A stretch of 37,395 nt of DNA from a virus (lineage: Duplodnaviria > Heunggongvirae > Uroviricota > Caudoviricetes), in the IMG/VR virus record IMGVR_UViG_3300045988_031779, positions 1 to 37,395 of that record, one strand, 5' to 3'. The notes below the pieces were generated by a model. The model worked only from the letters and a program-made list of their open reading frames with translations. It searched no databases and was not told the DNA's origin. The position numbers were made by a program, and so were the translations under genes. Below are positions 857-32,395 of the stretch, one piece after another (positions within the stretch are counted from its first letter, which is position 1; each line of letters opens with the position of its first letter).

Positions 857-873
857 ATTACCTTTCGGGTAAT
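857..873. promoter_or_regulatory. Operator-like palindrome site 1: ATTACC-tttcg-GGTAAT
   Basis: Perfect 6-bp inverted half-sites with 5-bp spacer, in the intergenic region between the tailspike start and the small antirepressor-like gene. Confidence 0.5.
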
Positions 874-909
874 TTGCAAAACGTGCTGGATAGCAAACAA
901 ATTATTTGT

Positions 910-929
910 TACTGTATAAACATACAGTT
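910..929 (+). promoter_or_regulatory. LexA (SOS) box-like site TACTGTATAAACATACAGTT
   Basis: CTGT-N8-ACAG with 17 of 20 matches to the E. coli LexA consensus TACTGTATATATATACAGTA; ends 20 bp upstream of the ATG at 949. Confidence 0.6.
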
Positions 930-948
930 ATTGCATGGAGAAGATAAG

Positions 949-1206
949 ATGCAGCAGTATCACTATCCACTGGAAGACGGATTTACCGAAAGGATTCACA
1001 CGCCGGGAGGCGTCAGGTCACTGGTGGAGGGATCGCACTTGATGAAATTACTCCGGGATCTCGATAAGGATGGATTTAATGTCGATGGCCCACTTGCCGA
1101 ACTGACTGCACTGATTAACTACGTCACCAGCTCACAGATGTCTATGCAGGATCTGCAAACACATCTCGACTATTGTGCCGAACAATTACGAAAACAAACC
1201 CGGTAA
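949..1206 (+). CDS. Small antirepressor-like protein (Tum-like), 85 aa
   Basis: ATG at 949 preceded by GGAG with about 8-nt spacing. Track ORF 826..1206 is the same frame but would contain the operator-like site and LexA box, so the shorter start is preferred. Product is clearly similar (roughly 45 percent identity by eye) to the C-terminal domain of the Bro-N antirepressor at 2355..3065. Confidence 0.5.
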   Translation: MQQYHYPLEDGFTERIHTPGGVRSLVEGSHLMKLLRDLDKDGFNVDGPLAELTALINYVTSSQMSMQDLQTHLDYCAEQLRKQTR

Positions 1207-1210
1207 ATTT

Positions 1211-1232
1211 AAAGGCCGCAAGAGCGGCCTAT
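1211..1232. terminator. Candidate bidirectional intrinsic terminator (GGCCGC-aaga-GCGGCC)
   Basis: 6-bp GC stem between convergent genes 949..1206(+) and 1229..1957(-), T/A-rich flanks on both sides; overlaps the stop of the minus-strand gene. Confidence 0.45.
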
Positions 1233-1957
1233 CGTTTCGCTTTGTGCTCGTCCCAGCACGTTTTGCACCATGCCATTAAGCCGTCCGCATTTTGATTATT
1301 AGGGTAAAAGCTGGTCCGTTTTCTGCGGACATTACAAATTGGGCACCACTTCATATGGCGTGTATTCTTTGGGCCATCGAGGCACCTTGCACACCACTTA
1401 GTCAATCCATCTGGATTTTTTGACGATTTCCGGAATTTGTCATATGGAAGGTTTATTCTGCATCGCAAACACTGCTTGCGGCCACTTGAAACTCTGTTAG
1501 CTGATTCTTCTTTTGGCGGCGATACAGAAGGTATTCTTGCTGGCTCTGATACTGCCTGAGGTGCTTTTTTAGATGACTGAGACGATATGTCATCACCAGG
1601 GAATCTTCCATGATATGCCGGACGCGTTGACACTCCAGGTGGAAGCTCAGCTGTAAACGGCTTTGGCTGAATCAGTTGCCTCTCTTTTGCTAACTCCTGC
1701 TGTTTATAATATGTCTGGATTACCGCACTATCATAAGCAGGAGGTACGGAAATATCAGGCGCGTTACCTCCAGTTTTTTGAAACTGAGTAGATGTGTGTT
1801 CTATCACCTGTGTACGACTAATCGTTACCTCCCCATCTTCGGTCTTTATCGTTTTGTTCTGATTAACGACCGTACGATCAGAGATCTTAGTCTTGTTCTG
1901 GTTGATAACGTAAATAATCACCGCAACCACACCAACAACTATCCAGAAAACTTCCAT
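1229..1957 (-). CDS. Single-pass membrane protein with C-terminal tandem Cys-rich (zinc-ribbon-like) repeats, 242 aa
   Basis: ATG at 1957 with GAGGA upstream; hydrophobic N-terminal helix FWIVVGVVAVIIYVI; C-terminus has two similar units NPDGLTKWCARC and NADGLMAWCKTC plus further Cys pairs. No family recognised. Confidence 0.55.
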   Translation of the reverse strand: MEVFWIVVGVVAVIIYVINQNKTKISDRTVVNQNKTIKTEDGEVTISRTQVIEHTSTQFQKTGGNAPDISVPPAYDSAVIQTYYKQQELAKERQLIQPKPFTAELPPGVSTRPAYHGRFPGDDISSQSSKKAPQAVSEPARIPSVSPPKEESANRVSSGRKQCLRCRINLPYDKFRKSSKNPDGLTKWCARCLDGPKNTRHMKWCPICNVRRKRTSFYPNNQNADGLMAWCKTCWDEHKAKR

Positions 1958-1976
1958 TGCTTTTCCTCACAATAAC

Positions 1977-1993
1977 ATTACCTTAAAGGTAAT
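1977..1993. promoter_or_regulatory. Operator-like palindrome site 2: ATTACC-ttaaa-GGTAAT
   Basis: Perfect palindrome 20-36 nt upstream of the start codon of 1229..1957(-). Confidence 0.5.
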
Positions 1994-2069
1994 ATCTTGC
2001 TTTCAGGTGATCAAGCGTTAAACGCAATCAACCAAATACGGTTGATTTTAATATTTCTTCGCGTTTATC

Positions 2070-2086
2070 ATTACCTTTGCGGTAAA
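2070..2086. promoter_or_regulatory. Operator-like palindrome site 3: ATTACC-tttgc-GGTAAA, with candidate promoter just upstream
   Basis: One mismatch to the palindrome; TTGATT (2040..2045) and TTATCA (2065..2070) form a plausible -35/-10 immediately upstream, reading rightward. Confidence 0.4.
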
Positions 2087-2198
2087 TTTACATCGCACTC
2101 CTCTTGTGCCATAGTAATCGGGCACTGGCAAAATCCAGTGCCGGGATTGGCGTCCCGGGTTACTAAGTGGCGCATACCACGCCAGACGTGGTTTTTTT
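2087..2198 (+). ncRNA. Candidate structured leader or small RNA upstream of the Bro-N antirepressor, ending in an intrinsic terminator
   Basis: Stem-loops at 2121..2142 (GGCACTGG-caaaat-CCAGTGCC) and 2141..2158 (CCGGGA-ttggcg-TCCCGG), then terminator 2177..2198. No convincing ORF; track ORF 1997..2308 lacks a ribosome-binding site and crosses the terminator. Confidence 0.3.
2177..2198 (+). terminator. Intrinsic terminator (CCACG-ccaga-CGTGG followed by 7 T)
   Basis: 5-bp GC-rich stem followed by TTTTTTT on the plus strand, about 155 bp upstream of the Bro-N antirepressor start. Confidence 0.5.
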
Positions 2199-2354
2199 AT
2201 GCGTTAAGCACAGCTATATCCGAATTATGGTGGGCTGGGCAGGGGTCCGAAAGGACGCCGGTACCACTTAGGCCGGTACGCCAACCTTGTCCAGTTCACC
2301 ACCAGTAATTGGCGTTGCGGTGGTGATTAAAATCACTAAGTGGAGATAACCACC

Positions 2355-3065
2355 ATGGCTAATGCTCAAACTTCCATCTTCAAATTTGAATCTGTTAACC
2401 CTATCCGTTCCATCATTATCGATGGCCAACCATGGTTTGTAGCCCAAGACGTTTGTAGTGCGCTGCGTATCCAAAACGTCACCCAAGCACTTGAAAAACT
2501 GGATGATGATGAAAGGTCTATGTTCAACATAGGGCATGAACATCGTGCAATTTTTGACAGCCGAGTAAAAGAGATCAACATCATCTCCGAGTCAGGCCTC
2601 TACACACTGATCCTCCGCTGCCGCGACGCAGTGACACCAGGCACTATCCCCTACCGCTTTCGTAAATGGGTTACAGGTGAGGTTCTTCCTCAGATCCGCC
2701 GCACCGGAAGCTACATTAAAAACTCGCTCCCGCAGGAAGAACGCATAAAGATGGTTGCCGACCAGGTAGCCAACGCCACAGCATCAGCAGTGATGCAGGC
2801 AATGAAGATAGAGAACAAAACCTACAGCGCCCCACTGAAGCCCGGCTACCGCAGCCTGATTCATTCGCCGTCTGGTGTTCTCGGCCTGACGGAGCACTCA
2901 CTGCTGATGAATCTGCTGAACCAGTTACAGGACGACGGGCACGACGTATCGGGCGCGGCGGCGGAGCTGACCACCATGTTCTGCTACATCGTCGGTGTGA
3001 GCAAATGCCTGCGTGATATCCAGACCCACGCGGAGTACATCAACGACAAAGCAGGGTTCTTCTGA
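2355..3065 (+). CDS. Bro-N domain antirepressor with Ant/KilA-C-type C-terminal domain, 236 aa
   Basis: ATG at 2355 with GGAG 9 nt upstream (track ORF begins at GTG 2340 in the same frame). N-terminus IFKFESVNPIRSIIIDGQPWFVAQDVCSALRIQN matches the Bro-N signature; C-terminal domain is paralogous to 949..1206. Confidence 0.7.
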   Translation: MANAQTSIFKFESVNPIRSIIIDGQPWFVAQDVCSALRIQNVTQALEKLDDDERSMFNIGHEHRAIFDSRVKEINIISESGLYTLILRCRDAVTPGTIPYRFRKWVTGEVLPQIRRTGSYIKNSLPQEERIKMVADQVANATASAVMQAMKIENKTYSAPLKPGYRSLIHSPSGVLGLTEHSLLMNLLNQLQDDGHDVSGAAAELTTMFCYIVGVSKCLRDIQTHAEYINDKAGFF

Positions 3066-3136
3066 CGGGCGGCGGCACAGGGATGTGTCTTTAAATCATT
3101 CTGTACAGATTGCAGACTGGGAGTGAATAGCGTACT

Positions 3137-3153
3137 ATTACCCTAAAGGTAAA
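3137..3153. promoter_or_regulatory. Operator-like palindrome site 4: ATTACC-ctaaa-GGTAAA
   Basis: 26-42 nt upstream of the ATG at 3179. Confidence 0.45.
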
Positions 3154-3178
3154 CCATGTGTTTACATGAGGAGGAGAT

Positions 3179-3388
3179 ATGGGATTTTGGTTCGCTCGTA
3201 CAAAAACGAGGGATAATGCACCCAGCCCTCAGGCAAAAAATGCAGAAGTTCCGGCGTCAGCGCAGGTTAACAAGCGTGGTGGAGTATATATCTCATCACA
3301 GCAAATTTCTGAGCTTCCTGAGGTTAAAGAGATGCGTCGTCTCGCTGCTGCAATTGTTAAACAGGATCTTGCCACTGTAAGGAAATAG
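3179..3388 (+). CDS. Hypothetical small protein, 69 aa
   Basis: ATG at 3179 with strong GAGGAGGA upstream; ordinary GC content; stop overlaps the GTG start of the next gene (TAGTG). Confidence 0.45.
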   Translation: MGFWFARTKTRDNAPSPQAKNAEVPASAQVNKRGGVYISSQQISELPEVKEMRRLAAAIVKQDLATVRK

Positions 3389-4251
3389 TGTTGTTAGCTC
3401 TTCTAATTATCCCCATTCTGGTTAGTGGTTATATTATGATAACCGCTAACCAGTATCATTATTTCCGTTTATACCGACATGAAGGCCAGCTTCTTTATAT
3501 GAAAGTAGCTGCATTAGGTACATATTGCCTTGTTGCTTCAGTAATAATTGCCGCATTTATAAAATGTAAATATCCTGATTTTCACCTAGTTCACGACATG
3601 GTGGAAACTTTTAATGTAACGTCAAAACCAGAAACAGATAGAATTTACATGTGGCTACTTCTTCTGTCAGTCACATCAATTTGCTTCTCTTTGTGTTATG
3701 TATCTTTTGTTTGGCTAAAAGATCTTCTTTTAGGTTGTTTTTATAAACGTGATATTTATGACAAAATATCAGAGGCAATGAAAGCTAGAGTATTGCGAAA
3801 AACGTACTCCCAGGGTTCTTTAGATTTGCTATTGCTTGATGCAATCGAATCAGATCCTAAGAAACCAATGTTAATTACTTTATCATCAAATAAAGTATAC
3901 GTTGGAATAATAAATGGTTCTGGTGAGCCAACGGAAAATCAAGGGCCACACCAACACATATCTTTTGTTCCTTTAATGTCAGGGTACAGAAACAAAGAAA
4001 ATTTATCTGTTACATTTACAAACGCTTACCCAGGTGAAATCCAAATTAAGCGCAGTGCTGCGATAAAAGGGATAAGCAAAAAGAAAGTTCAAGGTCTAGA
4101 AATTATGGTATCTATAGACGAAATAAGTCATATATCATGGTTTGACTTTGAAGTATATAAGGCAACCAATAACAAAGTAGAAACAAAGGGTCATGTTGTT
4201 AATGTGACCAAAAATGGTCGCAACATATACTACAGAAGTGGCAGGAAATAA
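3388..4251 (+). CDS. Polytopic membrane protein (about 3 predicted TM helices plus ~170-aa soluble C-terminal domain), 287 aa, AT-rich cargo
   Basis: GTG start overlapping the upstream stop, GGAA 5 nt upstream. Hydrophobic segments LLALLIIPILVSGYIMI, VAALGTYCLVASVIIAAFI, MWLLLLSVTSICFSLCYVSFVW. Sequence visibly AT-rich compared with flanking phage genes (by eye, not computed). No family recognised. Confidence 0.6.
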   Translation: MLLALLIIPILVSGYIMITANQYHYFRLYRHEGQLLYMKVAALGTYCLVASVIIAAFIKCKYPDFHLVHDMVETFNVTSKPETDRIYMWLLLLSVTSICFSLCYVSFVWLKDLLLGCFYKRDIYDKISEAMKARVLRKTYSQGSLDLLLLDAIESDPKKPMLITLSSNKVYVGIINGSGEPTENQGPHQHISFVPLMSGYRNKENLSVTFTNAYPGEIQIKRSAAIKGISKKKVQGLEIMVSIDEISHISWFDFEVYKATNNKVETKGHVVNVTKNGRNIYYRSGRK

Positions 4252-4267
4252 TTTTTACGTAGTTTAG

Positions 4268-4780
4268 GTGGCTTATATGGATAATACTATCTTAGGCGCA
4301 TTGATAGGTGCAGTTATTGCTATAGTTTCTACTTACATAAGTGCAAGGCAAGGATACAAAAACAGCATAAAATTAGAGCGCGAAAAAATATTAAGAGATA
4401 AACGTGAGCAATTATTCACAAATTGCATACTTACTGAAAAAGTCATAGCTTCAAACAAAATGGCTATTCTCAATTTTGTTAACAATGCCAGTTACCACTC
4501 TGATAGTAAATTTGACACATCAAAAGTCAATCCGTTGCAAACGATGGAAATGCTAATAAACATATACCTTCCTGAGTATAAAAAAGACTTACAAGAACTC
4601 AATAATATGTATAACAAGTTTCACAATTACTACTCTCAATATACATGTGCACATACCTTCAAAAATATGCCTGATAATGAGAAGTTGAAGTTTATTGAGG
4701 AAGCTGATTTTTATGCAAAAAAGATATATGGCAAACTTAATGATATTAAGGACAAGATATCATTTAACTCAATAGTATAA
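4268..4780 (+). CDS. Membrane-anchored protein (one N-terminal TM helix, Lys/Asn-rich soluble domain), 170 aa, AT-rich cargo
   Basis: ATG at 4268, 16 nt after the previous stop, with AGGTGG upstream. TM helix ILGALIGAVIAIVSTYI. No family recognised. Confidence 0.6.
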   Translation: MAYMDNTILGALIGAVIAIVSTYISARQGYKNSIKLEREKILRDKREQLFTNCILTEKVIASNKMAILNFVNNASYHSDSKFDTSKVNPLQTMEMLINIYLPEYKKDLQELNNMYNKFHNYYSQYTCAHTFKNMPDNEKLKFIEEADFYAKKIYGKLNDIKDKISFNSIV

Positions 4781-4855
4781 CAGCGATACTGCCGCTGACG
4801 GCTCCCGCTGCGGTGGGCGTTCTGCGGATTCCCGCCCGGGCGGCGGTGGAATTCG

Positions 4856-5740
4856 TTAAAAACAAGGCCGCGAAAGCGGCCTGTTTGATAACTGTGCAGT
4901 TTTCGCTGATCGATTTTCAGCTCTAAATTCAAGAACCGTTTCAATATTTCTTTCCTTCAGCATATCAATAACATTTTTATTCATTTGACTATCACTGGTT
5001 AATAACTGGTAAACGTCGCTTCTCTCTTTATCAGAGTTTTCTTTAACAGCTGCTTTGCATGCCAAATGCTTATTGAAATTTTCTACATCGCTAGTACAGG
5101 AATTTACGGCTGCTGATGAAATATCAGACGCTGAAGAAACACCATCATCCAAACGTTTTATAGCATTTTCTATACATGAGTTAAGGGAATAAACGACAAC
5201 TGAGCGATACCCTTCAGACGCACACCATTCTAAATTTCTTGAAGGATCGAGTGGTTTTACTTCGCTGGATTGAATTAACTTGTCAAAAACTGACTTATAT
5301 TCAATCTGTTTTTTATCTATAGCCCATACTTCAGTAGCTGATTTATAATTCCCCGTATGCCTATTAACATCAAATCCATGTTTTATAAGCAAATCTGCCC
5401 ATGAAAGATTTATTGATTCATTGTTATGAGGCCATTTTCCTGTCAGAACCGCCCCCATAGACCCCATATATCCGCCATATGATGGTATAGCACCATGGCT
5501 CAGTAACTTCTCAGCAACCACAGGGCAATTAATTACATAAGAGGCGTAAAGCCCATTCCATAAAGCCCCTCTATAGTAATCGCCACGATTAGGTTCTTTT
5601 AAGTCGATAGCCTTTGATAATTGTTCACACGTTTTGCATGCATCAAAGTTATCCTTATTGCATTGCAATGAACTGGCAGCTGTAGGATTTACAGAGACTA
5701 TTGAAAGCACTATGCCAAAAAACAAATTTATTTTTTTCAT
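4856..5740 (-). CDS. Secreted protein with Sec-type signal peptide, AT-rich; weak ankyrin-repeat-like motifs, 294 aa
   Basis: ATG at 5740, 1 nt after the stop of the 1129-aa virion protein gene. N-terminus MKKINLFFGIVLSIVSVNPTAASS is signal-peptide-like; ADLLIKHGFDVN and AEKLLSHGA resemble ankyrin repeat ends (weak). Confidence 0.55.
   Translation of the reverse strand: MKKINLFFGIVLSIVSVNPTAASSLQCNKDNFDACKTCEQLSKAIDLKEPNRGDYYRGALWNGLYASYVINCPVVAEKLLSHGAIPSYGGYMGSMGAVLTGKWPHNNESINLSWADLLIKHGFDVNRHTGNYKSATEVWAIDKKQIEYKSVFDKLIQSSEVKPLDPSRNLEWCASEGYRSVVVYSLNSCIENAIKRLDDGVSSASDISSAAVNSCTSDVENFNKHLACKAAVKENSDKERSDVYQLLTSDSQMNKNVIDMLKERNIETVLEFRAENRSAKTAQLSNRPLSRPCF
4866..4883. terminator. Bidirectional intrinsic terminator candidate (AGGCCGC-gaaa-GCGGCCT)
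   Basis: 7-bp GC stem with GAAA loop, flanked by AAAAACA upstream and GTTTGAT downstream, at the convergence of the plus-strand module and the minus-strand late operon; overlaps the last codons of 4856..5740. Confidence 0.5.
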
Positions 5741-5741
5741 C

Positions 5742-9131: not shown

Positions 9132-11878
9132 TATTTGCCCCCTGCGTATATATTGCTCGGAAGGTAATTGGCTGAACCATAACCGAATGGTTTGGTCAGA
9201 TCTGGAGGAGTATATCCATCTTTATTGCTGAACTGCGGCAGCGGATTGCCTTCTCTCCGCACTCTAGCCTCATCAACACGCTGTTGCTGGAACTGAATGG
9301 TTTGCCTGTACATTGGAGATGTCAGCTGATCCGGCTTGAAACGAACAGGGAGACCATTTTCTCCAATATAATTTCTCGGTTCTATCGCTCCGTTTGCGTC
9401 AGGCTGTAAAACCATAACAGCATAACTCCTATCCCTTGCCGTAAGGCCATCAGAAACAAGTATTAAGTCCGTATCACTGCGAGGACCGCCAAAGGATTTT
9501 GATTTAAGCTCGCGTTTTTCCTGCTCCCACTGCCCCTGTATCCAGTTACCAGCACCATTATTTACTCCGTACAATGCCTCAGGTGCATACTTCATAACCT
9601 CTGCTTTGCCATTAACCGTAGAAACTCCCCAAGTGGTTCTGATCATGGCATTGGTCATTTTCTCAGCCTGTTCTGCATCGCCACCTGTCTGTACAAAGTT
9701 AGCATCGTAAATTGTCTGGTAATCTCGCTGATAGGCCGCATTTGATTTTCCTGGATCGGTAATATCCGGAGACCACGAACCAAAGGAAGTCAGACTGCTG
9801 GCGTTATTTTGTGCAGCAGTTGCCCTCGCCGCGACATATTTTTTGTCTCGCATGGCAGTGGAAAGCATCTGTTTCATTCGGTCATCCTGTTGGAACACCT
9901 GGCTGTAAGCCATATCAACAGCCTTATCCTCCGGCACGCCAGCGCGGGAATAATCGTAAACCTTGCCGTAAAATGCCATCGTACTTTTATCAAGTGTTGC
10001 CGCTGCCGCCGGATTATTATCGAATAACTGACCGTAGAATTTTGCCATCGGGACAACCAGCGCAGGATCTCTTGATGTTGCTCCACTGTTAAGCATTGTT
10101 TTAACCTGAGTTGGTATCATGCCGCTTTTAGTTGTGACGGTGACCAGTGTATTGATGCTCTGCGGATCAGATATGGAAAACGAAGGCGCGATATCCTGCG
10201 CGAAATAACGGTCTACCGCTGCCTGATTGTTTTTGTCGTTCGGGTCCAGCGGGAAGTTATTTTGCATTGAAGACACGAACCTGTTTCTTCCCTGCTGAAT
10301 CTCCCACTCCCTATCCATCTCTTTAAATTTGGCCTGCATTTTCTCCCAGCGTTGCTGGTTAGCTGCAAATCCAGGAGCGTTTGGATCCTGTGGACGTAAA
10401 CGTTCAAGAATGTCTTGTCGTCCTTCTGGAGTGAGGTCTTTAGCGGCACCAATGACACCTCCATATTGTATCTGCGCCTGCATATCCTTCCACTTCATAG
10501 CGCCAATGCGCGGACCATTGGCCCGGATAAAATCGTCCTCAGAAGGTAACTGCTCAGGTTTCAATCCTTCATCAAGGGCTGAATATGCATCTTTAACTAC
10601 GGTGCTAAGCTGGTCCGCATACTGCTGGCGGTACTGATTTCTCAGCTCATTAGCCTGCCTCAATGCCTGTATTTGCATTTGAGGGCTCATAGCATCAAAT
10701 GCCGCATTGCCCGTATAACGCTTAGGTGAATCAAGGTTAGTTAGACCAAGGGCTGCCGAGATACCAGTTTCAAGCTGTTCGGTGCTATAAGGCATACTGC
10801 CATTTTCGTGTTTAATAATCCCAGCACATAAAGCAGCTAGTGTCTTTGGGTTAGAGATATCAAGCTGATCATTCTCCCCAACACCAAGCTCACCACACAA
10901 TGCCCTAATATAAGCATCAGTATTATTACCATCACTAGCCGGAGCATAACGATTAACAATCTCGCTAACGGTGTCATAGCCTTGACGCTGGTAAGACAAC
11001 ATATTTTTACCCAACGCGCGGATTCCATGCTCAGGGGTAGCAAACGTTGCAAAACGTCCATCGCTACCGATCTGACCTTCCCACGGGTTAGATTTGCTCG
11101 CTTCAATATTACCAGGATTATTATTACGTAAACCACGAGCATCCAATGAATTACCATGTGACATTGCACGGCTCACACCGTCAAGATCCCCTGGCTCTCC
11201 ATTAACCTGAAGAAACTCGTTGTATTTTTGAGCGATATTTCCTATCCATGCTTGCTGCCCCATTTGTTCCTTGAGCTGAGTTTTCTGCTGAACACGCCAC
11301 TCATCAGGAAGCCCATGCGCATCAGCGTATTGATCAATAGATTCAAATCGCTGCTTGGCTAAATCGACAAATGCTTGGTTATCGCTATATAGCCCCGCAG
11401 ACTGAGTGACAGCCAATGCATTTCCTGACAAATACGTTTGATCTTGGAATTGCTGAAACTGCCCAACTTCATATCGACGTGCCTGATTGTAATAAGACTG
11501 CATAGACTGCTGGAGTTGAAAGGATAATTTATTCCTTTCCTCACTTTCAGGAATTGAGCCTAATAATGCCTGAGCCCTTTCCTGCATATTTTTCATAACA
11601 GCGTCACTCTGACCAAGAGCGTTTTTACCCTGTTTAGAAATCAGCCCATTTTCTGGGTTGTTAATCTGGTCATCTGCAAATTGGTTAAATTGCAGTAACG
11701 CCTCCTGGGCCATAGCAACATTCGCTTTCTGCCTGGCTTCACCATATGCCACCGCATACTGATCTGCGACATTCGCCAGCACCTGACCTGCTTGAGGAAC
11801 ATCGAAGGTTTGAAAACCACCGGTTTGCACACCACGACTTTGCACCTGGCGTCCGGATGTAGTAGGAACAACAGGCAT
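9131..11878 (-). CDS. Internal virion/core protein (T7 gp15-like position), 915 aa
   Basis: 1-nt overlap with flanking genes. Contains a conserved-looking segment LRNNNPGNIEASKSNPWEGQ...GIRALGKNMLSYQRQGYDTVSEIVNRYAP of unknown function. Assignment by order and size. Confidence 0.55.
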   Translation of the reverse strand: MPVVPTTSGRQVQSRGVQTGGFQTFDVPQAGQVLANVADQYAVAYGEARQKANVAMAQEALLQFNQFADDQINNPENGLISKQGKNALGQSDAVMKNMQERAQALLGSIPESEERNKLSFQLQQSMQSYYNQARRYEVGQFQQFQDQTYLSGNALAVTQSAGLYSDNQAFVDLAKQRFESIDQYADAHGLPDEWRVQQKTQLKEQMGQQAWIGNIAQKYNEFLQVNGEPGDLDGVSRAMSHGNSLDARGLRNNNPGNIEASKSNPWEGQIGSDGRFATFATPEHGIRALGKNMLSYQRQGYDTVSEIVNRYAPASDGNNTDAYIRALCGELGVGENDQLDISNPKTLAALCAGIIKHENGSMPYSTEQLETGISAALGLTNLDSPKRYTGNAAFDAMSPQMQIQALRQANELRNQYRQQYADQLSTVVKDAYSALDEGLKPEQLPSEDDFIRANGPRIGAMKWKDMQAQIQYGGVIGAAKDLTPEGRQDILERLRPQDPNAPGFAANQQRWEKMQAKFKEMDREWEIQQGRNRFVSSMQNNFPLDPNDKNNQAAVDRYFAQDIAPSFSISDPQSINTLVTVTTKSGMIPTQVKTMLNSGATSRDPALVVPMAKFYGQLFDNNPAAAATLDKSTMAFYGKVYDYSRAGVPEDKAVDMAYSQVFQQDDRMKQMLSTAMRDKKYVAARATAAQNNASSLTSFGSWSPDITDPGKSNAAYQRDYQTIYDANFVQTGGDAEQAEKMTNAMIRTTWGVSTVNGKAEVMKYAPEALYGVNNGAGNWIQGQWEQEKRELKSKSFGGPRSDTDLILVSDGLTARDRSYAVMVLQPDANGAIEPRNYIGENGLPVRFKPDQLTSPMYRQTIQFQQQRVDEARVRREGNPLPQFSNKDGYTPPDLTKPFGYGSANYLPSNIYAGGK

Positions 11879-12453
11879 CAGTAACCTCCTATTTTGAATC
11901 GGGAGTCAGAATTCATAAAACCTGAGTTAGATAACATTGGCGTCCCACCACTAGATGTACTTCCTTTAGAGAACGGACTCCACGTCCCACCAAACATCTG
12001 GTACGCACCGTATGCCTTCAGAGGCGCAGTGAGCAATGTTGTTGCTGCTCCCACATTCCCCTGTTTACGGGCTGAACTGGCTTCTGCTTTATAGTTGGCA
12101 GCCTGAACCTGATAACCGTAAGCCTCGCGTTGCGCGTTATTCACCGTCGTCAGCGAATCAAGAGCGCCGAACTGAGCAGTGTCACCAAATATATCCAGCG
12201 CGTTACCTGTAGATAAATCAGCGCCGGTAGCCCCCATTGTCGCCGCCTGTGTACCAAGCCGCTGTCGGGTCTCTCTGCGTCGTTGCTCAGCTTCAGCGTT
12301 ACCTCTGTTTATTGCATCATTTGCCTGAGCTGTGGCTATATCTGCGTTCGCTTCTGCAACCTTCGAGGCATACTTTCCCTGTTGGTACTGGGTGTATGCC
12401 TGAATGCCACTCATGGCGAGCATTGCGCCACCAGCAATAACCGGATCGCACAT
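11878..12453 (-). CDS. Internal virion protein (T7 gp14-like position), 191 aa
   Basis: Ala/Gly/Gln-rich small protein between the tubular-protein-like genes and the large core proteins; translationally coupled. Confidence 0.45.
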   Translation of the reverse strand: MCDPVIAGGAMLAMSGIQAYTQYQQGKYASKVAEANADIATAQANDAINRGNAEAEQRRRETRQRLGTQAATMGATGADLSTGNALDIFGDTAQFGALDSLTTVNNAQREAYGYQVQAANYKAEASSARKQGNVGAATTLLTAPLKAYGAYQMFGGTWSPFSKGSTSSGGTPMLSNSGFMNSDSRFKIGGY

Positions 12454-20845: not shown

Positions 20846-20883
20846 TTGACATTTAACGCACAAATTATTACCTTTCAGGTAAC
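20846..20883 (+). promoter_or_regulatory. Rightward promoter candidate (TTGACA) overlapped by operator-like site 5 (ATTACC-tttca-GGTAAC, 20867..20883)
   Basis: Consensus -35 hexamer at 20846..20851; the palindrome sits where the -10 and transcript start would be; faces the tRNA and moron ORF. Confidence 0.4.
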
Positions 20884-21204: not shown

Positions 21205-21281
21205 GTGGCATTAGCTCAGCTGGACAGAGCAACCGCTTTCTAAGCGGTTGGTCGCAGGTTCGAATCCTGCATGCCACGCCA
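21205..21281 (+). tRNA. tRNA-Arg (anticodon UCU)
   Basis: 77-nt cloverleaf folded by hand: 7-bp acceptor stem GTGGCAT/ATGCCAC, D arm GCTC/GAGC, anticodon stem ACCGC/GCGGT with loop TTTCTAA (anticodon TCT), T arm GCAGG-TTCGAAT-CCTGC, discriminator G, encoded CCA. Resembles enterobacterial argU-type tRNAs. Confidence 0.85.
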
Positions 21282-21920: not shown

Positions 21921-21922
21921 AC

Positions 21923-21992: not shown

Positions 21993-23468
21993 TTAAGCAT
22001 AGGGATCGTAATCTGTGATGGCCTTGCCTTGCTGGTTCTGCTGACCGGGAATTCGCAGACGCTTAGACACAGGGAACGCAAACGTCAGCAGTAGCGCATC
22101 GCCTTTACCCGGTGAACGCCCAAGCCGCTCCTTGATATCTTCCTTCGGTTCGATAACGATTTTACCGTCCACTCGAACTTTGTACTCTGCCGCCGACAGG
22201 TCGTCTGCTGTTTCCTGGTCATCCAGCATGCCGCCCAGCCTCAGCCATGTCTTGCATGAATTGAACATCTCCCCACGCTTGTTGAGCATCTGCGGGTCAG
22301 TAGACGCGCCACCGAACGGAACAAGTTGCCATGTACGACCCCAGCCGTCACCGATTGACTTCAAACCGGTTCCGTAACCGAAGTCGATGAACACCGCGTC
22401 AGCCTGATACTGGTCTTCAAAGTCAGCGATACGCTTCGCCATAATCAGATCGTCGGTAGTCTTGTTGCCAGTCCACAGCACCTTACTGTGTAGCCCCTGC
22501 CGCAGGTATATCACAGCGTCATCAACGCCGGAGTATGCCGGGTCAACGCCGATTATCACCGGAGCATGTGCAACCTGCGCAGCGGTTACCACCCGTTTCA
22601 TTGCCTCGTCAGTAAGACCGGTAGGGATAAACTGCAATTCAGATGCATCAGGGAATATGCCACGCACACGGATTTTAACGAAGTCGCTGTCTTCCCCGTA
22701 GTCATCAACCCATTTCTGCAACTGCTGTTTGTTAGTGCCTTCCACCGTCCGGCTGTCAATCTGCGCAGTTTTCCAGCGGTGTTTATATTTGCGGAAACAT
22801 TCGCGAAAACGCCCGGTGTTACGTGTAGGGTTTCCGAACGCCACCCAAATAATCTCAGTGTCTTCGTCCGTAAGCGCACCCTCGGCAACTTCCCACACCA
22901 GATCCGCAATGTTCGACGCTTCATCAAACACCACGATGATGCGTTTGCGCTCGTTGTGTAGTCCGGCGAATGCCTCGGTGTTGTGCTCAGACCAGGGTAT
23001 TGCGTCAGCCCGCCACCGCTTGTCGTGCCCTAGGTCATTGCTGTACATCGCGGTAGCGGTACAGGTAAACCAGTCTTTCGTGATAGCAAGGTTCGACCAC
23101 TTGATAATTTCCGGCCAGGTCTTCGTTCGTAGCTGGTTGTCGGTGTTGGCGGTCACCACGACCTTACAATCCTCGCAAGTGGACATGCCCCAGTTGATCA
23201 GCATTGAGATGAATGCGGATTTACCAATACCGTGACCAGAAGCGCGTGCCAGCATAAGCGGCTGATAGCGCGTCTCTGGATTCTGCAGGTGATCACGTAT
23301 CTCTCGGAACGCATCAGCCTGCCACTGACGTGGGCCGGTGGCATGTGCCAGTTCAGTCCCCTCTTCCCCCCATGGGAACGCATAGAGGGCATAGCCAAGC
23401 GGATCGTGAGTGAACCCTGCAATATCCTCGATTAACTGCTCTTCAGGAGATAACGCTGTATCTGTCAC
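21993..23468 (-). CDS. Terminase large subunit, 491 aa
   Basis: Size, ATPase-like N-terminal region and acidic nuclease-like C-terminal region, 4-nt overlap with the small subunit gene upstream. Confidence 0.8.
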   Translation of the reverse strand: MTDTALSPEEQLIEDIAGFTHDPLGYALYAFPWGEEGTELAHATGPRQWQADAFREIRDHLQNPETRYQPLMLARASGHGIGKSAFISMLINWGMSTCEDCKVVVTANTDNQLRTKTWPEIIKWSNLAITKDWFTCTATAMYSNDLGHDKRWRADAIPWSEHNTEAFAGLHNERKRIIVVFDEASNIADLVWEVAEGALTDEDTEIIWVAFGNPTRNTGRFRECFRKYKHRWKTAQIDSRTVEGTNKQQLQKWVDDYGEDSDFVKIRVRGIFPDASELQFIPTGLTDEAMKRVVTAAQVAHAPVIIGVDPAYSGVDDAVIYLRQGLHSKVLWTGNKTTDDLIMAKRIADFEDQYQADAVFIDFGYGTGLKSIGDGWGRTWQLVPFGGASTDPQMLNKRGEMFNSCKTWLRLGGMLDDQETADDLSAAEYKVRVDGKIVIEPKEDIKERLGRSPGKGDALLLTFAFPVSKRLRIPGQQNQQGKAITDYDPYA

Positions 23469-24061
23469 TGATTGCCATCCTGACGTTCTTTCAGTCTCTT
23501 CCTGGCTGCCGCTATGCGATCAGCAATTGTCACATTCACATTAACATCCAGGCGTTCTTTGAATGCGTTGACGTCGACGTGCTTACCAATCAGTTCGAGG
23601 TTCTTCACCTTGTCAGGCCATTTAATTTTTTTGAGGATTGTCTCTATCGAATCCTCGTTCATGTTCATGATGGTCGATGACAGATCAAAGCCACTAAGCG
23701 TAGTGCGCCAGATTTTCGGCCACTCGCGGATTGGCTTAAGGCTCCCATCGTCGTTGAGGATGTCGATCACGTCCATCTGGTCGATCTCCACCAGGCGCAT
23801 GAGAACGTAATCAGCACTGACGCGCATTCGTTTGTTGCGCTCTTCCATCAGCTCGGCAATCCGTTTTTGAATGCGTTCATCGCGCATCATGAGACTGGCT
23901 TTAACTGCCGCTGTATTTGGGGAGAATCCTGCGTTAATCGCTGCCTGAGTCTGGTTTTCAGGCGTTTTGATGTATGACTGGCAATAAGCCTCCTGCATTG
24001 CTGTTAGTGGCTTAAATTGCGTTGATTTGCGTTTATAGGTTTTAGGTTCAGCAGGCATCAT
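23465..24061 (-). CDS. Terminase small subunit, about 198 aa
   Basis: Start preferred at the ATGATG at 24061; the track start at 24139 adds an N-terminal extension (TITTTVTITTVV) that is the translation of a direct DNA repeat and reads through a terminator. Motif PLTAMQEAYCQSYIKTPENQTQAAINAGFS resembles small-terminase N-terminal DNA-binding domains. Confidence 0.6.
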   Translation of the reverse strand: MMPAEPKTYKRKSTQFKPLTAMQEAYCQSYIKTPENQTQAAINAGFSPNTAAVKASLMMRDERIQKRIAELMEERNKRMRVSADYVLMRLVEIDQMDVIDILNDDGSLKPIREWPKIWRTTLSGFDLSSTIMNMNEDSIETILKKIKWPDKVKNLELIGKHVDVNAFKERLDVNVNVTIADRIAAARKRLKERQDGNQ

Positions 24062-24077
24062 AACCACCGTGGTAATA

Positions 24078-24094
24078 GTTACCGTTGTGGTAAT
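24078..24094. promoter_or_regulatory. Operator-like palindrome site 6: GTTACC-gttgt-GGTAAT, embedded in direct repeats GTGGTAATAGT
   Basis: 17-33 nt upstream of the small terminase start; direct repeats GTGGTAATAGT at 24069..24079 and 24087..24097. Confidence 0.4.
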
Positions 24095-24112
24095 AGTACC
24101 ATGCAAAATAAA

Positions 24113-24130
24113 GCCGCCATAGTTGGCGGC
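24113..24130 (-). terminator. Intrinsic terminator on the minus strand (GCCGCC-aactat-GGCGGC followed by TTTATTTTG)
   Basis: 6-bp GC stem with T-rich tail in the minus-strand sense, between the last early gene (24180..24518) and the terminase genes. Confidence 0.45.
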
Positions 24131-24170
24131 AGTATTCAAAACCCATCAAATTCATCATGCATAACCCACT

Positions 24171-24185
24171 CGTGACATGTCACAA
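24171..24185. repeat. 15-bp element CGTGACATGTCACAA (copy 2)
   Basis: Identical to 21906..21920; overlaps the stop of 24180..24518. Confidence 0.6.
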
Positions 24186-26266: not shown

Positions 26267-26267
26267 A

Positions 26268-27643: not shown

Positions 27644-27651
27644 GCGGAGCC

Positions 27652-28775: not shown

Positions 28776-28836
28776 CTTTACCCTCGCTTATCCACATAAC
28801 TTATTGATTACATTGATAACTAAAAAGATCGTCGAT

Positions 28837-29184
28837 TCAGAACTCTTCGATGTTCCAGCCACCACCTGCTTTCTTTGGCTTAACCGTTACCCCGATGATT
28901 CGGAACGGATACTGATCTGCGGCGACTTTGGTTTTCACTCTGGCGTCATCGGTCCAGAATCCCCCTTTCACTTCGTGCAGTTCCACCTCGCCGGTGGCGA
29001 GCATCACAGCAAAATCTGGCGTATAGAACGTGTTGTCAGCTAACCGCAGCTTGATACCCTCAAATCGATACCAGACGATTTCTCCTGCACGTTTACGCAG
29101 CTCAAGGTGCTGGCAATACGCAGATTCTGTTTTGTTCATCTGGCCTGTTTTGAGTCGACCAAGAGCCTGCATCTGTTTTCTCAT
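28837..29184 (-). CDS. DUF1064-like putative PD-(D/E)XK nuclease, 115 aa
   Basis: Motifs YTPDF and ELHEVKG fit a D...E-x-K nuclease core; first gene downstream of the replication genes. Confidence 0.45.
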   Translation of the reverse strand: MRKQMQALGRLKTGQMNKTESAYCQHLELRKRAGEIVWYRFEGIKLRLADNTFYTPDFAVMLATGEVELHEVKGGFWTDDARVKTKVAADQYPFRIIGVTVKPKKAGGGWNIEEF

Positions 29185-29186
29185 GA

Positions 29187-29203
29187 TTTACCCCTTAGGT
29201 AAT
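29187..29203. promoter_or_regulatory. Operator-like palindrome site 7: TTTACC-cctta-GGTAAT
   Basis: 4-20 nt upstream of the start codon at 29184. Confidence 0.45.
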
Positions 29204-29248
29204 TAAAAACCACATAAGACACGAAATCAATAGATTTTAGAATATTTT

Positions 29249-29265
29249 ATTACCCCTAAGGTAAT
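29249..29265. promoter_or_regulatory. Operator-like palindrome site 8: ATTACC-cctaa-GGTAAT
   Basis: Perfect palindrome about 45 bp from site 7, in the gap between the P-like gene and the DUF1064-like gene. Confidence 0.5.
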
Positions 29266-29302
29266 TATCGAGACGTAAAAAAAATGCGCTATCGCGCTGG
29301 TA

Positions 29303-30103
29303 TTACTTGATAAATCCTGACGCCTTTCCCCGCCTGTATTCCTCCATCAGCCACTGCGCCGGTGTTATTCCCCCAAGGGTGGCGGCGTTAGGCATGCACC
29401 CGAAACTTCGCCCTGGTGGATGGTAAACGTCTCTCCCTGTGTCCGGAGGCGTACTCATGGGTTCTGGCTTTGCCTGTATGCTGATCACCGGATCGGGTAT
29501 CTGCTGTCCGGAAGCCACCTTTTTCGCCCAATCATCGAGCAGCCTGCGCGCGTGTTTCTCAACCTCAATCTCGCTAAGCTGGCGCTGATACATTGCACGG
29601 CGGGTATCACATACGACCCAGTACATAACCGGATGTCGCCACGGGAATCTTTCGGGACCACCAGGATATAAACTTTTTTCCTTGCTGTACCGGTGAAACT
29701 CCGCCATCACATCGTCAATGGTGACGCCAAGAACCATCTTGCTGTCTTTACACCACTTGATGAATTGCCCTGGCGACGGCCAGAACGGAGACTCACTGGC
29801 GCGGGCGTGGCGCATACCAGCAGAAACCTGTTCACGGGTTCGGATCCCACCTTCGGCAAACGCAGCAATCCACTGCTGTTTTGCAGCAACTTCCTGCTCT
29901 GGCGTCTTCAGGTTGGTTACCACTGCCGCCGGAAACAGTTGTTTCAGCTGTTTGAAAAGGGCATCAACAAGCCTCTCTGCTGACATGTTCACCACGTTGT
30001 CATTGTTGGTGTACTGATGCTCATAACCTGACATGCGAGAAAGGGCTTCTCCGTCACGGTTTTGTATCGCGGTAAAAACGTTGTTCACAAGAAATCCTCC
30101 CAT
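29303..30103 (-). CDS. Replication protein P-like helicase loader, 266 aa
   Basis: Segment KQQWIAAFAEGGIRTREQVSAGMRHARASESPFWPSPGQFIKWC aligns by eye with lambda P (RRQWVLAFRENGITTMEQVNAGMRVARRQNRPFLPSPGQFVAWC); directly follows the O-like gene. The start overlaps the O-like gene by 19 nt and may be downstream. Confidence 0.7.
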   Translation of the reverse strand: MGGFLVNNVFTAIQNRDGEALSRMSGYEHQYTNNDNVVNMSAERLVDALFKQLKQLFPAAVVTNLKTPEQEVAAKQQWIAAFAEGGIRTREQVSAGMRHARASESPFWPSPGQFIKWCKDSKMVLGVTIDDVMAEFHRYSKEKSLYPGGPERFPWRHPVMYWVVCDTRRAMYQRQLSEIEVEKHARRLLDDWAKKVASGQQIPDPVISIQAKPEPMSTPPDTGRDVYHPPGRSFGCMPNAATLGGITPAQWLMEEYRRGKASGFIK

Positions 30104-30924
30104 GCTTCAGGGCTGTTCCAGTGCGGAACGTTGTTATCAGGTAATGTTGATTGCTTCTGTCTGCTAATCTGCAGCCGCCTTGCCAGCTTCTGCTCCCACT
30201 GTGCCTGATGGTATGCCTTACCCTCAGCCATCCAGTAAATTCTGAACTCTGCAAGTTCCTGTGCCGTTGGCAGACTGTCCAGGTAGATCCCCTGCAATGA
30301 GCTTTTCCGAAGAAAGTCATCTGATGGCTGCCATTGTTCATGCATGACAAATTTGCCTAATTGCCCTGGCCCACCAGGAGGAACAAAGTTATTCATCACG
30401 GCGTTGTTTGCGCCGGGGTCATGATGCACAGAATCCCCGTTTTTTGTCCTGCTCTCCCTCTCTTGGTTAAATGACTGGTTATATGACTGGTTCTGGATCC
30501 CGTTTTTGGGATCATTCAACATCCCGTTTTTGGGATCATTCAACATCCCGTTTTTGGGATCATTCAACATCCCGTTTTTGGGTATATTCCCGTTTTCGGT
30601 AACATTACCGTTTTCGGGTTCATTGCCCCCCTCTCGGTTGCCTTTAATGTTCCCGTTTTTGGTTATATTAAGAGAGAAAACCCGCACTCTTTTTGTCGCT
30701 CCCTTTCTCTCCCCGGTATCTGAAATAAGCCCCATTTTCATGAGCGATATAAGTCCGGCCTGCACGGTTTTTTTATTCAGGCAAGTGTCTTTAACGAGGC
30801 GTTCTATGCTGGGGTAGCAGAGGTTATATTCATCGGCTCTGTCAGCCATCGAGAGCAGTATGAGCTTTAATGACGAGCTACCTGGATCTGTCTCCCAGGC
30901 CCAATCTGTTGCATGTCTGCTCAT
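30085..30924 (-). CDS. Replication initiator (lambda O-like, helix-turn-helix N-terminus) containing origin iterons, 279 aa
   Basis: ATG at 30924 with GGAG 8 nt upstream; N-terminal DNA-binding-like region; internal peptide repeats PKNGMLND encoded by the DNA iterons; position upstream of the P-like gene. Confidence 0.65.
   Translation of the reverse strand: MSRHATDWAWETDPGSSSLKLILLSMADRADEYNLCYPSIERLVKDTCLNKKTVQAGLISLMKMGLISDTGERKGATKRVRVFSLNITKNGNIKGNREGGNEPENGNVTENGNIPKNGMLNDPKNGMLNDPKNGMLNDPKNGIQNQSYNQSFNQERESRTKNGDSVHHDPGANNAVMNNFVPPGGPGQLGKFVMHEQWQPSDDFLRKSSLQGIYLDSLPTAQELAEFRIYWMAEGKAYHQAQWEQKLARRLQISRQKQSTLPDNNVPHWNSPEAWEDFL
30496..30664. repeat. Origin-like iteron array: core CCGTTTT(T/C)GG, four copies at 24-bp period plus three degenerate copies
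   Basis: Direct read: ATCCCGTTTTTGGGATCATTCAAC repeated with 24-bp periodicity from about 30498, then copies at about 30591, 30609 and 30653; A/T-rich segment follows. Confidence 0.7.
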
Positions 30925-30939
30925 GATTAATCTCCGCTA

Positions 30940-31140
30940 TCAGCTTGAATGTTGTGGGGAGGAATTAATCATGATCTGCTTAATCTCTGCCCTGATACGA
31001 CGGTTTGATTCCATGGTGCACTCAACACAGTGTCCGTTGTAAACCCAGCGTTCACTGTCATGTCCGTGCTTACATGTTTTTCCGGTGTAGTAGCGTTTAA
31101 GTCCGCGCTTTGCGGCATCAATACGTGTAATGATTTCCAT
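30940..31140 (-). CDS. Small zinc-ribbon protein, about 66 aa
   Basis: Start preferred at ATG 31140 (AGGG upstream) rather than the track start 31203; Cys/His cluster CKHGHDSERWVYNGHCVEC; sits between the cro-like and O-like genes where lambdoid phages carry cII. Confidence 0.4.
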   Translation of the reverse strand: MEIITRIDAAKRGLKRYYTGKTCKHGHDSERWVYNGHCVECTMESNRRIRAEIKQIMINSSPQHSS

Positions 31141-31219
31141 GGTAAGCCCTGTTATTAGTATTGGGATTACGGTCATTTTGTGCTGACACAAAAAAAAGAT
31201 CAACCAGATTTGGTTTTTT

Positions 31220-31236
31220 ATTACCTTTGAGGTACG
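31220..31236. promoter_or_regulatory. Operator-like palindrome site 9: ATTACC-tttga-GGTACG
   Basis: One mismatched half-site; in the gap between the cro-like gene end and the zinc-ribbon gene. Confidence 0.35.
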
Positions 31237-31290
31237 AATAGATATGAAAAGACCGCCGGATGGCGGTCTACAGAGGGTTGTGGCTGGATA

Positions 31291-31521
31291 TCATGAGTAG
31301 AAGAAGTATGCCAATTCTGCTTTTGAGCGCAGCCATTGTCTTGTTTTACAGGCTTTAAAAAGCCCATTCATCAATACCTTACCTGGCATTTTGCGCTTAC
31401 CTGTTAAGTGAGTCTGGATATAGTGACTCGTCGTTCCGGCTTCCTGTGCGAAGGCTTCACGCTCATCCGGAGTAAGTGCAAGCCAGTGCTTTTTGAAATC
31501 GAAATGTCCGTTATCGCTCAT
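31291..31521 (-). CDS. Cro/CII-like small helix-turn-helix regulator, 76 aa
   Basis: Divergent from the repressor gene across the operator cluster; HTH-like segment EREAFAQEAGTTSHYIQTHLTGKR. Confidence 0.5.
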   Translation of the reverse strand: MSDNGHFDFKKHWLALTPDEREAFAQEAGTTSHYIQTHLTGKRKMPGKVLMNGLFKACKTRQWLRSKAELAYFFYS

Positions 31522-31556
31522 AGCTATTGCCTGATATTTATTTCAGATAATAAATA

Positions 31557-31621
31557 TTCACCCATAAGGTAACAAAAATCAAGGATAGTTACCTATGAGG
31601 TGCATTTACCTGTTGGGTAAT
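31557..31621. promoter_or_regulatory. Cluster of three operator-like sites in the repressor/cro divergent region
   Basis: TTCACC-cataa-GGTAAC (31557..31573), GTTACC-tatga-GGTGCA (31588..31604, weakest), TTTACC-tgttg-GGTAAT (31605..31621). Confidence 0.55.
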
Positions 31622-31675
31622 ATTGCTTTAAATTGAATCATCTACTGATTCATATATGAGGCGATTTTCCAGAAA

Positions 31676-32260
31676 ATGAAAAGTATCCAGGACGTCCGCA
31701 GGCAAAATCTCAACGACTTGATCGACCGTGAATTCAATGGTGTTCAGACGCGGATGGCAGAAAAACTTGGAACTCAGGCAAATCTGGTAAACCGCTGGGC
31801 TCTTGGCAAGAAGGTTATCGGCGACCAGGTTGCACGAAAAATTGAAGCTGCCGCCAATAAACCCCGTAACTGGCTTGATATCGATCGCTCGCTTTCTCAG
31901 GAAGGTTTTCAGCCTGTCGGCCCAAGCGACATTGGTCAGCTGGCGGCTCACAACCTGGAACGCTGGATGAGCGAAAGCCGCGACCTTTCAACGCAGGGAA
32001 AACTTCACCGCGCATCCGGCGTCGCCCAGGTGACAATCAGTCGCCTGTTAAACAATGAGGTCAGCGTTTCCATTTCCACCCTGGAGAATGTTGCATCCGC
32101 ATTCGGGCGTCACGGCTATGAATTACTGATTCACCCGCACGACCCTGCGACCATCAACTATGACCGCTCGCGCTACGCATTGTTACCCGAAACCGAGAAA
32201 GCAAAGATCGAAAGTTACATTGAATTTGTCATCAACCAGAACGAAAAAAACAAACAATAA
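31676..32260 (+). CDS. Prophage repressor, tandem helix-turn-helix type, no recognisable LexA-like peptidase domain, 194 aa
   Basis: Two HTH-like segments (VQTRMAEKLGTQANLVNRW and ASGVAQVTISRLLNNE); no Ala-Gly cleavage site or Ser/Lys dyad region seen; divergent from the cro-like gene; followed by a strong terminator. Confidence 0.6.
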   Translation: MKSIQDVRRQNLNDLIDREFNGVQTRMAEKLGTQANLVNRWALGKKVIGDQVARKIEAAANKPRNWLDIDRSLSQEGFQPVGPSDIGQLAAHNLERWMSESRDLSTQGKLHRASGVAQVTISRLLNNEVSVSISTLENVASAFGRHGYELLIHPHDPATINYDRSRYALLPETEKAKIESYIEFVINQNEKNKQ

Positions 32261-32281
32261 AATCATACTTTTCAGTAAGTA

Positions 32282-32304
32282 AGCCGCCTTCTGGCGGCTT
32301 TTTT
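32282..32304 (+). terminator. Intrinsic terminator (AGCCGCC-ttct-GGCGGCT followed by TTTTTT)
   Basis: 7-bp GC stem with a 6-T tail immediately downstream of the repressor gene. Confidence 0.65.
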
Positions 32305-32316
32305 ATTGCCTATACT

Positions 32317-32333
32317 ATTACCTAATGGGTAAT
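32317..32333. promoter_or_regulatory. Operator-like palindrome site 13: ATTACC-taatg-GGTAAT
   Basis: Perfect palindrome between the repressor terminator and the rightward early promoter. Confidence 0.5.
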
Positions 32334-32351
32334 TTTTTTAACTCATATCTA

Positions 32352-32395
32352 TTGACATCAAACCAAATACGCATAATTATTACCTCAACGGTAAC
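32352..32395 (+). promoter_or_regulatory. Rightward early promoter candidate (TTGACA, 17 bp, AATTAT) overlapped by operator-like site 14 (ATTACC-tcaac-GGTAAC, 32379..32395)
   Basis: Consensus -35 at 32352..32357, -10-like AATTAT at 32375..32380, palindrome overlapping the -10 and start region. Confidence 0.5.

Follow-up and report, generated by a model that had tools for sequence, protein, structure and literature searches.

Dispersed palindromic sites predicted to be operators of the prophage repressor Rep in a phiV10-like Uetakevirus prophage

A 17-bp palindrome, ATTACC-N5-GGTAAT, recurs throughout the viral DNA of IMG/VR record IMGVR_UViG_3300045988_031779 (positions 1 to 37,395, referred to here in its full length of 37,395 nucleotides as the window). 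The window is a phiV10/epsilon15-like podovirus prophage of the genus Uetakevirus, runs in the opposite direction to phiV10 and stops at the start codon of the integrase gene. Comparative evidence makes it highly likely that the palindromes are operators of the prophage repressor Rep (194 residues; rep at 31676..32260, plus strand), and 15 of them, three degenerate copies included, were found in nine control regions. Dispersed at nearly every promoter, they would very probably enable one repressor to silence the whole phage. The assignment to Rep is supported by the enrichment and intergenic placement of the palindromes, the annotation of epsilon15, the recurrence of the sites in relatives, their overlap with promoters, published data on phage ZX5, and the Pseudomonas phage PseuP_224. 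A dispersed Rep operator regulon is already known for Uetakevirus, and the prophage in the window is a further member and no new kind of system; because the epsilon15 sites are already annotated and Rep is structurally characterised, the result is a rediscovery in a known system.

The repeated palindrome, its conservation and the repressor

The window was searched for the 17-mer, and for its core form TTACC-N5-GGTAA, with no mismatch, up to one mismatch or up to two mismatches. Matches were placed on a gene map built from the list of open reading frames (ORFs), synteny with phiV10 and three corrected gene boundaries: the ATG of ant at 949 rather than 826, that of terS at 24058, and that of the tail-fibre gene at 753 on the minus strand, this gene running off the left end. 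Intergenic DNA makes up 6.2% of the window by this map, and the expected counts for intergenic and coding DNA are Markov expectations. The perfect 17-mer was found four times (0.00 expected), the core form with up to one mismatch 14 times (0.64 expected) and the 17-mer with up to two mismatches 17 times (1.07 expected). All 12 copies of the 17-mer with up to one mismatch were intergenic, where 0.013 were expected in intergenic and 0.05 in coding DNA. When two mismatches were allowed, 13 copies were intergenic (0.16 expected) and four were coding (1.1 expected). The coding matches, at 9152, 24827, 25895 and 33963 with two mismatches each, were dismissed as chance because none of them preserves the otherwise invariant ACC/GGT core and a count of 1.1 was expected.

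Among the 30 half-sites of the 15 copies, ACC is present in all 30 and TT in 27-28, while the outer A is weaker (18 of 30). Each of the five spacer positions holds 0.1-0.8 bits, which is almost no information. The repeated palindrome in the window is real. An initial annotation, made from the sequence of the window, had reported at least 14 copies that lie in intergenic DNA only and combine conserved half-sites with a variable spacer, and had proposed that enrichment and intergenic bias be checked against background. All 14 of its coordinates were correct and a 15th copy was found at 24060-24076; the counts lie far above the Markov expectation, and the frequency in coding DNA is not equal to that between genes. 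Copies with a four-base spacer showed no excess in the window (one against 1.0 expected) and none was considered real. Literature text searches on the motif string returned nothing relevant.

The same sites are found in related phages. The GenBank record of epsilon15 contains seven features of the type 'protein_bind, bound moiety repressor, lysogeny', and all seven are perfect copies of ATTACC-N5-GGTAAT. They are located upstream of terS, of gp3 and of a RuvC-like gene, in the gap that separates the tailspike gene from gp19, the homologue of ant, and, three times, at the early-left promoter. Counted at up to two mismatches, with about one expected per genome, there are 18 sites in epsilon15, 18 in SPC32H, 15 in phiV10 (whose GenBank record has no operators annotated), 16 in Enterobacter phage Tyrion and 14 in Klebsiella phage BUCT711. 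In the relatives the holin operon and int are also preceded by copies, at positions just beyond the window. When four orthologous control regions were aligned, the half-sites did not vary and the -35 and -10 hexamers were largely invariant, but the spacers and some of the flanking DNA drift.

Rep was identified by its homology to PDB 5D50_A, the crystal structure of the SPC32H repressor (phmmer, E 4e-42, residues 1-190 of 194), and by its identity to the Rep of phiV10 and ZX5. It is 100% identical to the repressors of these two and of a dozen other E. coli phages, and about 42% identical to the Rep proteins of Salmonella phages (43% for epsilon15). It matches HTH_3/XRE models and is without an S24 autocleavage domain. 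Full-length orthologues are 43-78% identical and keep N36 and R40 in the N-terminal domain; together with some 20 further positions in this domain, these two do not vary among six Rep-type proteins, the cI protein of PseuP_224 among them. PMC9986798 divides Rep into an N-terminal DNA-binding, a middle dimerisation and a C-terminal tetramerisation domain, and secondary sources describe SPC32H Rep as a tetramer on palindromic DNA sites that is dismantled by tetrameric Ant. In ZX5, overexpression of Rep, the identical protein, abolished free phage and reduced endolysin mRNA by 99.99% and holin mRNA by 99.97%.

The window also encodes a small SPC32H-type antirepressor, Ant (85 residues; ant at 949..1206, plus strand), which matches chain E of 5D50 with E 4.1e-47. 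A near-consensus LexA box, TACTGTATAAACATACAGTT (910..929, plus strand), lies over the predicted ant promoter, and its CTGT/ACAG is kept in five of six aligned genomes, the BUCT711 variant being ATGT. Kim and Ryu are said to have found in 2013 that ant is LexA-controlled and that Rep is not cleaved by RecA.

Most of the palindromes lie over or beside predicted sigma-70-like promoters, and in a common register. At five promoters the operator overlaps the -10 hexamer by two bases, the AT that ends the hexamer and begins the operator. Two of these promoters were called by a promoter-prediction tool, namely TTGACA-17-AATTAT for the early recombination operon (proximal operator 32379) and TTGATT-18-TATCAT for a module of isrK-like small RNA (sRNA), C4 RNA and Bro-N gene (proximal operator 2070). 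The others were read by eye, namely TTGATT-17-TTTAAT for the DUF1064/nin-like operon (29187), TTGCAG-17-TACTAT for a variable cargo slot (3137), and the extended -10 TGgTACTAT for terS (24078, with its tandem partner 24060). Copies 32317, 29249 and 31220 are distal operators, set 16-18 bp upstream of a -35, and in four regions the distal operator comes directly after a rho-independent terminator. Spacings from centre to centre are 17-18 bp for abutting copies, or 31, 62 and 93 bp, corresponding to 2.98, 5.96 and 8.94 helical turns, and the 62-bp pairs recur in epsilon15, SPC32H, phiV10, Tyrion and BUCT711. Operators spaced by 31, 62 or 93 bp would share a helical face, and a Rep tetramer could therefore clamp or loop the promoter.

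Candidate readers of the sites and a proposed mechanism

The only match to Rep outside the genus was the cI of the Pseudomonas siphovirus PseuP_224, the first ~70 residues of which are 39% identical to the Rep N-terminal domain (E 1e-12). The C-terminus of this cI aligns poorly with Rep and contains GNSMEP, which we take to be an S24 LexA-like signature. In PseuP_224 the same half-sites are separated by four bases: ATTACC-N4-GGTAAT occurs seven times against 0.36 expected, and five of the seven lie in two clusters that directly flank cI (10905-10946 and 11767-11821), in a lambda-style OL/OR layout. An unannotated ORF for a 76-residue Cro-like protein was noticed at 11851-12081, divergent from cI.

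These observations bear on the alternative that survives best, although we regard it as unlikely: that the palindromes are mainly sites of the window's own Cro-like protein, or are read by both Cro and Rep as in lambda, with Cro tuning lytic transcription through the dispersed copies. This small helix-turn-helix (HTH) protein (76 residues; 31291..31521, minus strand) belongs to a 'transcriptional repressor' family (phrog_35, E 5.6e-13), and three sites lie between its gene and rep. It is also more conserved than Rep, with 58-84% identity across the genus and, between the window and epsilon15, 76% against 43% for Rep, which matches the invariance of the half-sites. However, PseuP_224 has both the half-site and the Rep-like N-terminal domain in common with the window, whereas its Cro-like ORF shows no significant similarity to the window's Cro-like protein, and the ATTACC half-site thus tracks the Rep-type N-terminal domain. 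The depositors of epsilon15 likewise assign the sites to the repressor. The Cro-like protein and Rep probably share at least the OR sites, and the Cro-like protein may read the dispersed copies as well.

It is very improbable that the operator-promoter cassettes are kept chiefly as homology patches for module exchange, with regulation as a secondary role. Cassettes are indeed found at module boundaries beside terminators, and the junction at 3110-3153 heads unrelated cargo in the window and in phage TL-2011b, but sites of 17 bp are short for homologous recombination, and selection on the half-site bases and on the -10 register points to a transcriptional function; such a role would moreover be compatible with Rep operators and is not a true alternative to them. 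Least probable of all are RNA or DNA hairpins (attenuators, processing sites or terminators) in place of protein sites: each palindrome can form a stem of 6-7 bp and several lie in 5' leaders adjoining start codons, but this was rejected because the hairpins are weak (-3.6 to -4.5 kcal/mol) and without a T-run, variation is non-compensatory and breaks pairing (GGTGCA, GGTACG, TTCACC) while the sequence itself is invariant, and the distal copies, being upstream of the -35, are not transcribed from that promoter.

Several points weigh against Rep as the reader of the palindromes. Its binding to those in the window is predicted from sequence, as are the sites themselves, and the better conserved Cro-like protein could be their main or second reader. 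The spacing classes are few and, being orthologous between genomes, non-independent. Several promoter calls, those for the tail fibre and the late operon among them, are weak consensus matches, and site 857 overlaps no recognisable core promoter. The initial annotation had favoured a dispersed repressor regulon, with sites for a dimeric DNA-binding protein, over a lambda-type two-operator region, and this proposal, with a dimeric HTH repressor as the protein, is supported by the epsilon15 annotation, the homology to 5D50, the ZX5 data and the overlap with promoters.

In the mechanism proposed for Rep, pairs of its N-terminal HTH domains would read the two TTACC half-sites, whose centres are one helical turn apart. 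The middle domain would dimerise and the C-terminal domain tetramerise to give two DNA-binding pairs per particle, as secondary sources report for the SPC32H homologue. The genome would consist of terminator-insulated transcription units, each with its own promoter and each silenced directly by Rep; because they are insulated, each unit would need its own operator. In the usual layout an operator would start at the last two bases of the -10, often with a second copy 16-18 bp upstream of the -35 or in tandem at 17-18 bp, and one Rep tetramer may bridge two operators on the same face and so enclose the promoter. The cluster of three sites between rep and the cro-like gene would act as a bistable switch. 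Induction would proceed without cleavage of Rep: DNA damage would take LexA off the box at the ant promoter, Ant would be made, and by binding the C-terminal domains of Rep it would take Rep off all operators at once, a mechanism reported for SPC32H and extended to the window by homology. That site 857 spares the ant core promoter would make sense here, because Ant must be inducible while Rep is bound, with LexA as the gatekeeper.

A broader joint reading is offered tentatively, as possible rather than probable. Rep tetramers may clamp promoters by means of phased pairs (31, 62 or 93 bp, conserved in four host genera), and the cassette of terminator, distal operator, promoter and proximal operator may be a portable launch pad for swapped cargo, such as the YafO toxin in TL-2011b and the AT-rich module here, that is silent in the lysogen and fires only on induction. 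The N-terminal domain that reads ATTACC would have been recruited again in the Pseudomonas siphovirus, where it would sit on a RecA-cleavable cI scaffold and recognise half-sites with N4 spacing.

Control regions across the window

The perfect operator 857..873 (ATTACCTTTCGGGTAAT) lies in the gap between two divergent genes, one for the tail fibre (ATG 753, minus strand) and the other ant (949, plus strand). It is orthologous to the epsilon15 'repressor' feature at 19895-19911, and its half-sites are invariant in five of six genomes, phiV10 having GGTGAT. It is ~50-65 bp upstream of each divergent promoter and leaves the predicted ant core promoter uncovered. Sites had initially been placed close to the starts or over the -10 regions of adjacent genes, and this holds for the Bro-N gene, the AT-rich module, the nin-like gene and terS but not for ant, where the LexA box is found instead. 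A block at 798-829 (ATTCTATTACC...AACC.TATATG) is invariant in six genomes and contains a single ATTACC half-site, at a distance of 50 bp from operator 857. The block also overlaps a good minus-strand -10 (TAGAAT) for the tail-fibre gene, and it may be a hybrid or an activator site. No convincing sigma-70 promoter was found for the tail-fibre gene or for rep, and both promoters may be activator-dependent.

Another perfect operator, 1977..1993, lies 20 bp upstream of a minus-strand gene for 242 residues and is 93 bp from the operator at 2070..2086 (ATTACCTTTGCGGTAAA). The latter covers the -10/+1 of the promoter at 2042-2071, so that the promoter of the isrK-C4-Bro-N module bears a predicted Rep operator. 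On the plus strand this module encodes an isrK-like sRNA (2122-2198) and a C4 antisense RNA (2223-2306), with Rfam scores of 67.7 and 66 bits that are both above the gathering score, followed downstream by a Bro-N antirepressor-type gene (2340..3065, plus strand; Bro-N E 1e-19). The tandem of isrK-like (Hfq-binding) sRNA, C4 RNA and Bro-N gene resembles P1 immI and forms a second antirepressor module beside the LexA-controlled Ant.

Operator 3137..3153 (ATTACCCTAAAGGTAAA) lies over the -10 of the promoter (3110-3138) that heads the variable cargo slot, within 3110-4860. The cargo of the window (3179..4780) comprises three genes of 33% GC; no Pfam or PADLOC match indicated a function for this AT-rich cargo, and the three-gene module was absent from all 50,697 phage records searched. 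In TL-2011b (2560-3630) the same promoter and operator head a small gene and genes for a YafO-family toxin and a membrane protein, and only the junctions are common. An inverted repeat with a 15-bp stem (CTGGTTAGTGGTTAT ATTATG ATAACCGCTAACCAG; 3418-3453) was noticed just inside the 5' end of the 287-residue cargo gene.

The late gp3/portal operon has a candidate promoter, TTGTGC-17-TACGAT (minus strand), and operator 20867..20883, orthologous to the epsilon15 feature at 2931-2947, lies 3 bp upstream of its -35. The operator had been linked to a tRNA moron, wrongly, as it belongs to this operon. The tRNA in question, tRNA-Arg(TCT) at 21205-21281, is encoded on the strand opposite to the flanking late genes, with a tRNA-Arg at the equivalent place in SPC32H, and is unlinked to the operator.

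Two operators, 24078-24094 and 24060-24076, directly abut after the extended -10 of terS (24101-24093, minus strand) and end 2 nt before the terS ATG at 24058. The second, ATAACCACCGTGGTAAT, is the copy that was missing from the initial list. The tandem layout recurs in epsilon15 (11/29), Tyrion (66/84) and phiV10 (86/104), and terS starts 2 nt past the tandem operators in epsilon15, SPC32H and Tyrion too. The phiV10 record (41-715) starts terS upstream of the tandem operators, and this start appears over-extended. The same appears true of the longest ORFs for ant (826-1206) and terS (23465-24139) in the window, both of which swallow operators.

Two pairs, each 62 bp apart, enclose promoters. 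The pair at 29187 and 29249 (29187..29265, minus strand) lies around the promoter of the DUF1064/nin-like operon (29230-29202), with a terminator before it. The pair at 32317 and 32379 (32317..32395, plus strand) lies around the promoter of the early recombination operon (32352-32380), and the rep terminator (32281-32300) precedes operator 32317; that two sites flank this strong rightward early promoter next to the repressor gene had been proposed earlier and was confirmed. When each pair was aligned across five genomes, no half-site varied, and the -35 and -10 hexamers were in large part invariant.

Between rep and the cro-like gene (31557..31621) the three copies described as OR-like in the initial annotation were found in the layout it gave: 31557-31573 with three mismatches, 31588-31604 with four and 31605-31621 with one. 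The leftward cro promoter has site 31557 within its core; upstream of this promoter, beside rep, 31588 and 31605 stand end to end. The cluster is present at aligned positions in five genomes, and the degenerate copies 31557 and 31588 were accepted as sites because epsilon15, SPC32H and BUCT711 have stronger copies where these two align. Past the terminator of the cro gene, an operator with two mismatches (31220..31236) lies 16 bp upstream of TTGATC-17-CAAAAT (minus strand), a promoter directed toward the replication genes. Direct-repeat arrays were noticed at 30464-30624, within the DnaT-like/replication-initiator gene (30085..30924, minus strand): a 24-bp unit, ATCCCGTTTTTGGGATCATTCAAC, is repeated perfectly 3.6 times, and arrays of 12-bp and 18-bp repeats flank it. 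These repeats look like origin iterons within an initiator gene, as in lambda O.

Significance and comparison with known systems

To our knowledge, the register of operator and -10, the phasing at 31, 62 and 93 bp and the extension of the regulon to swappable cargo have not been spelled out elsewhere. The present analysis provides a complete map of predicted operators for the phiV10 lineage, whose GenBank records annotate none; as phiV10 is a reporter and typing phage for E. coli O157:H7, the map should be useful for engineering and for predicting prophage genes that are silent in the lysogen. The gene starts of terS and ant are corrected. Register and phasing together provide a concrete, testable model of repression by the structurally known Rep tetramer, whose mechanism of repression, according to a 2023 paper, "has not been extensively characterized".

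The closest system is that of epsilon15 and SPC32H. The palindrome is shared at the orthologous terS, gp3 and tail fibre/ant positions, the early-left pair, the OR triple and the nin-region pair; Rep and Ant each have full-length homologues there, and ant is preceded by a LexA box. Every testable feature of an epsilon15/SPC32H-type Rep regulon was thus found in the window, namely Rep homology, Ant with its LexA box, the motif and the orthologous intergenic positions. The window differs from epsilon15 in its additional sites at the isrK-C4-Bro-N module, the 242-residue gene and the AT-rich cargo, which are absent from epsilon15, and in the number of sites seen, 15 against the seven annotated there.

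The initial annotation had compared the regulon with P1 C1 and with mycobacteriophage L5, and these comparisons hold for the dispersal of the sites but not for their symmetry, their association with promoters or the protein that would bind them. In P1, C1 controls dispersed operators, including those of the antirepressor and of late functions, and the operators are asymmetric 17-mers, ATTGCTCTAATAAATTT. The likeness lies in one repressor with many genome-wide operators, antirepressor and late functions included, and the window too has a module of C4 RNA and ant-type gene. In contrast to P1, the sites of the window are symmetric and Rep is an HTH_3-type protein unrelated to C1, and the regulon is not of the P1 type. 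L5 likewise has many repressor sites outside its immunity region, but its stoperators, the sites of gp71, are asymmetric 13-mers that lie within transcription units and block elongation in an orientation-dependent manner, whereas the sites of the window are palindromic and lie on promoters, none of the 12 strong ones falls in coding DNA, and the protein is unrelated; the regulon is therefore not of the L5 type either.

As in lambda, the genes for Rep and the Cro-like protein are divergent with three operators between them, and a second cluster is found at the early-left promoter. Unlike lambda, the window has operators in seven further control regions, and Rep lacks an S24 domain and would be inactivated by Ant. 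Ten of the 15 sites lie outside the regions flanking rep, up to ~31 kb away, so that the arrangement is not the two-cluster one of lambda, which is found instead in PseuP_224.

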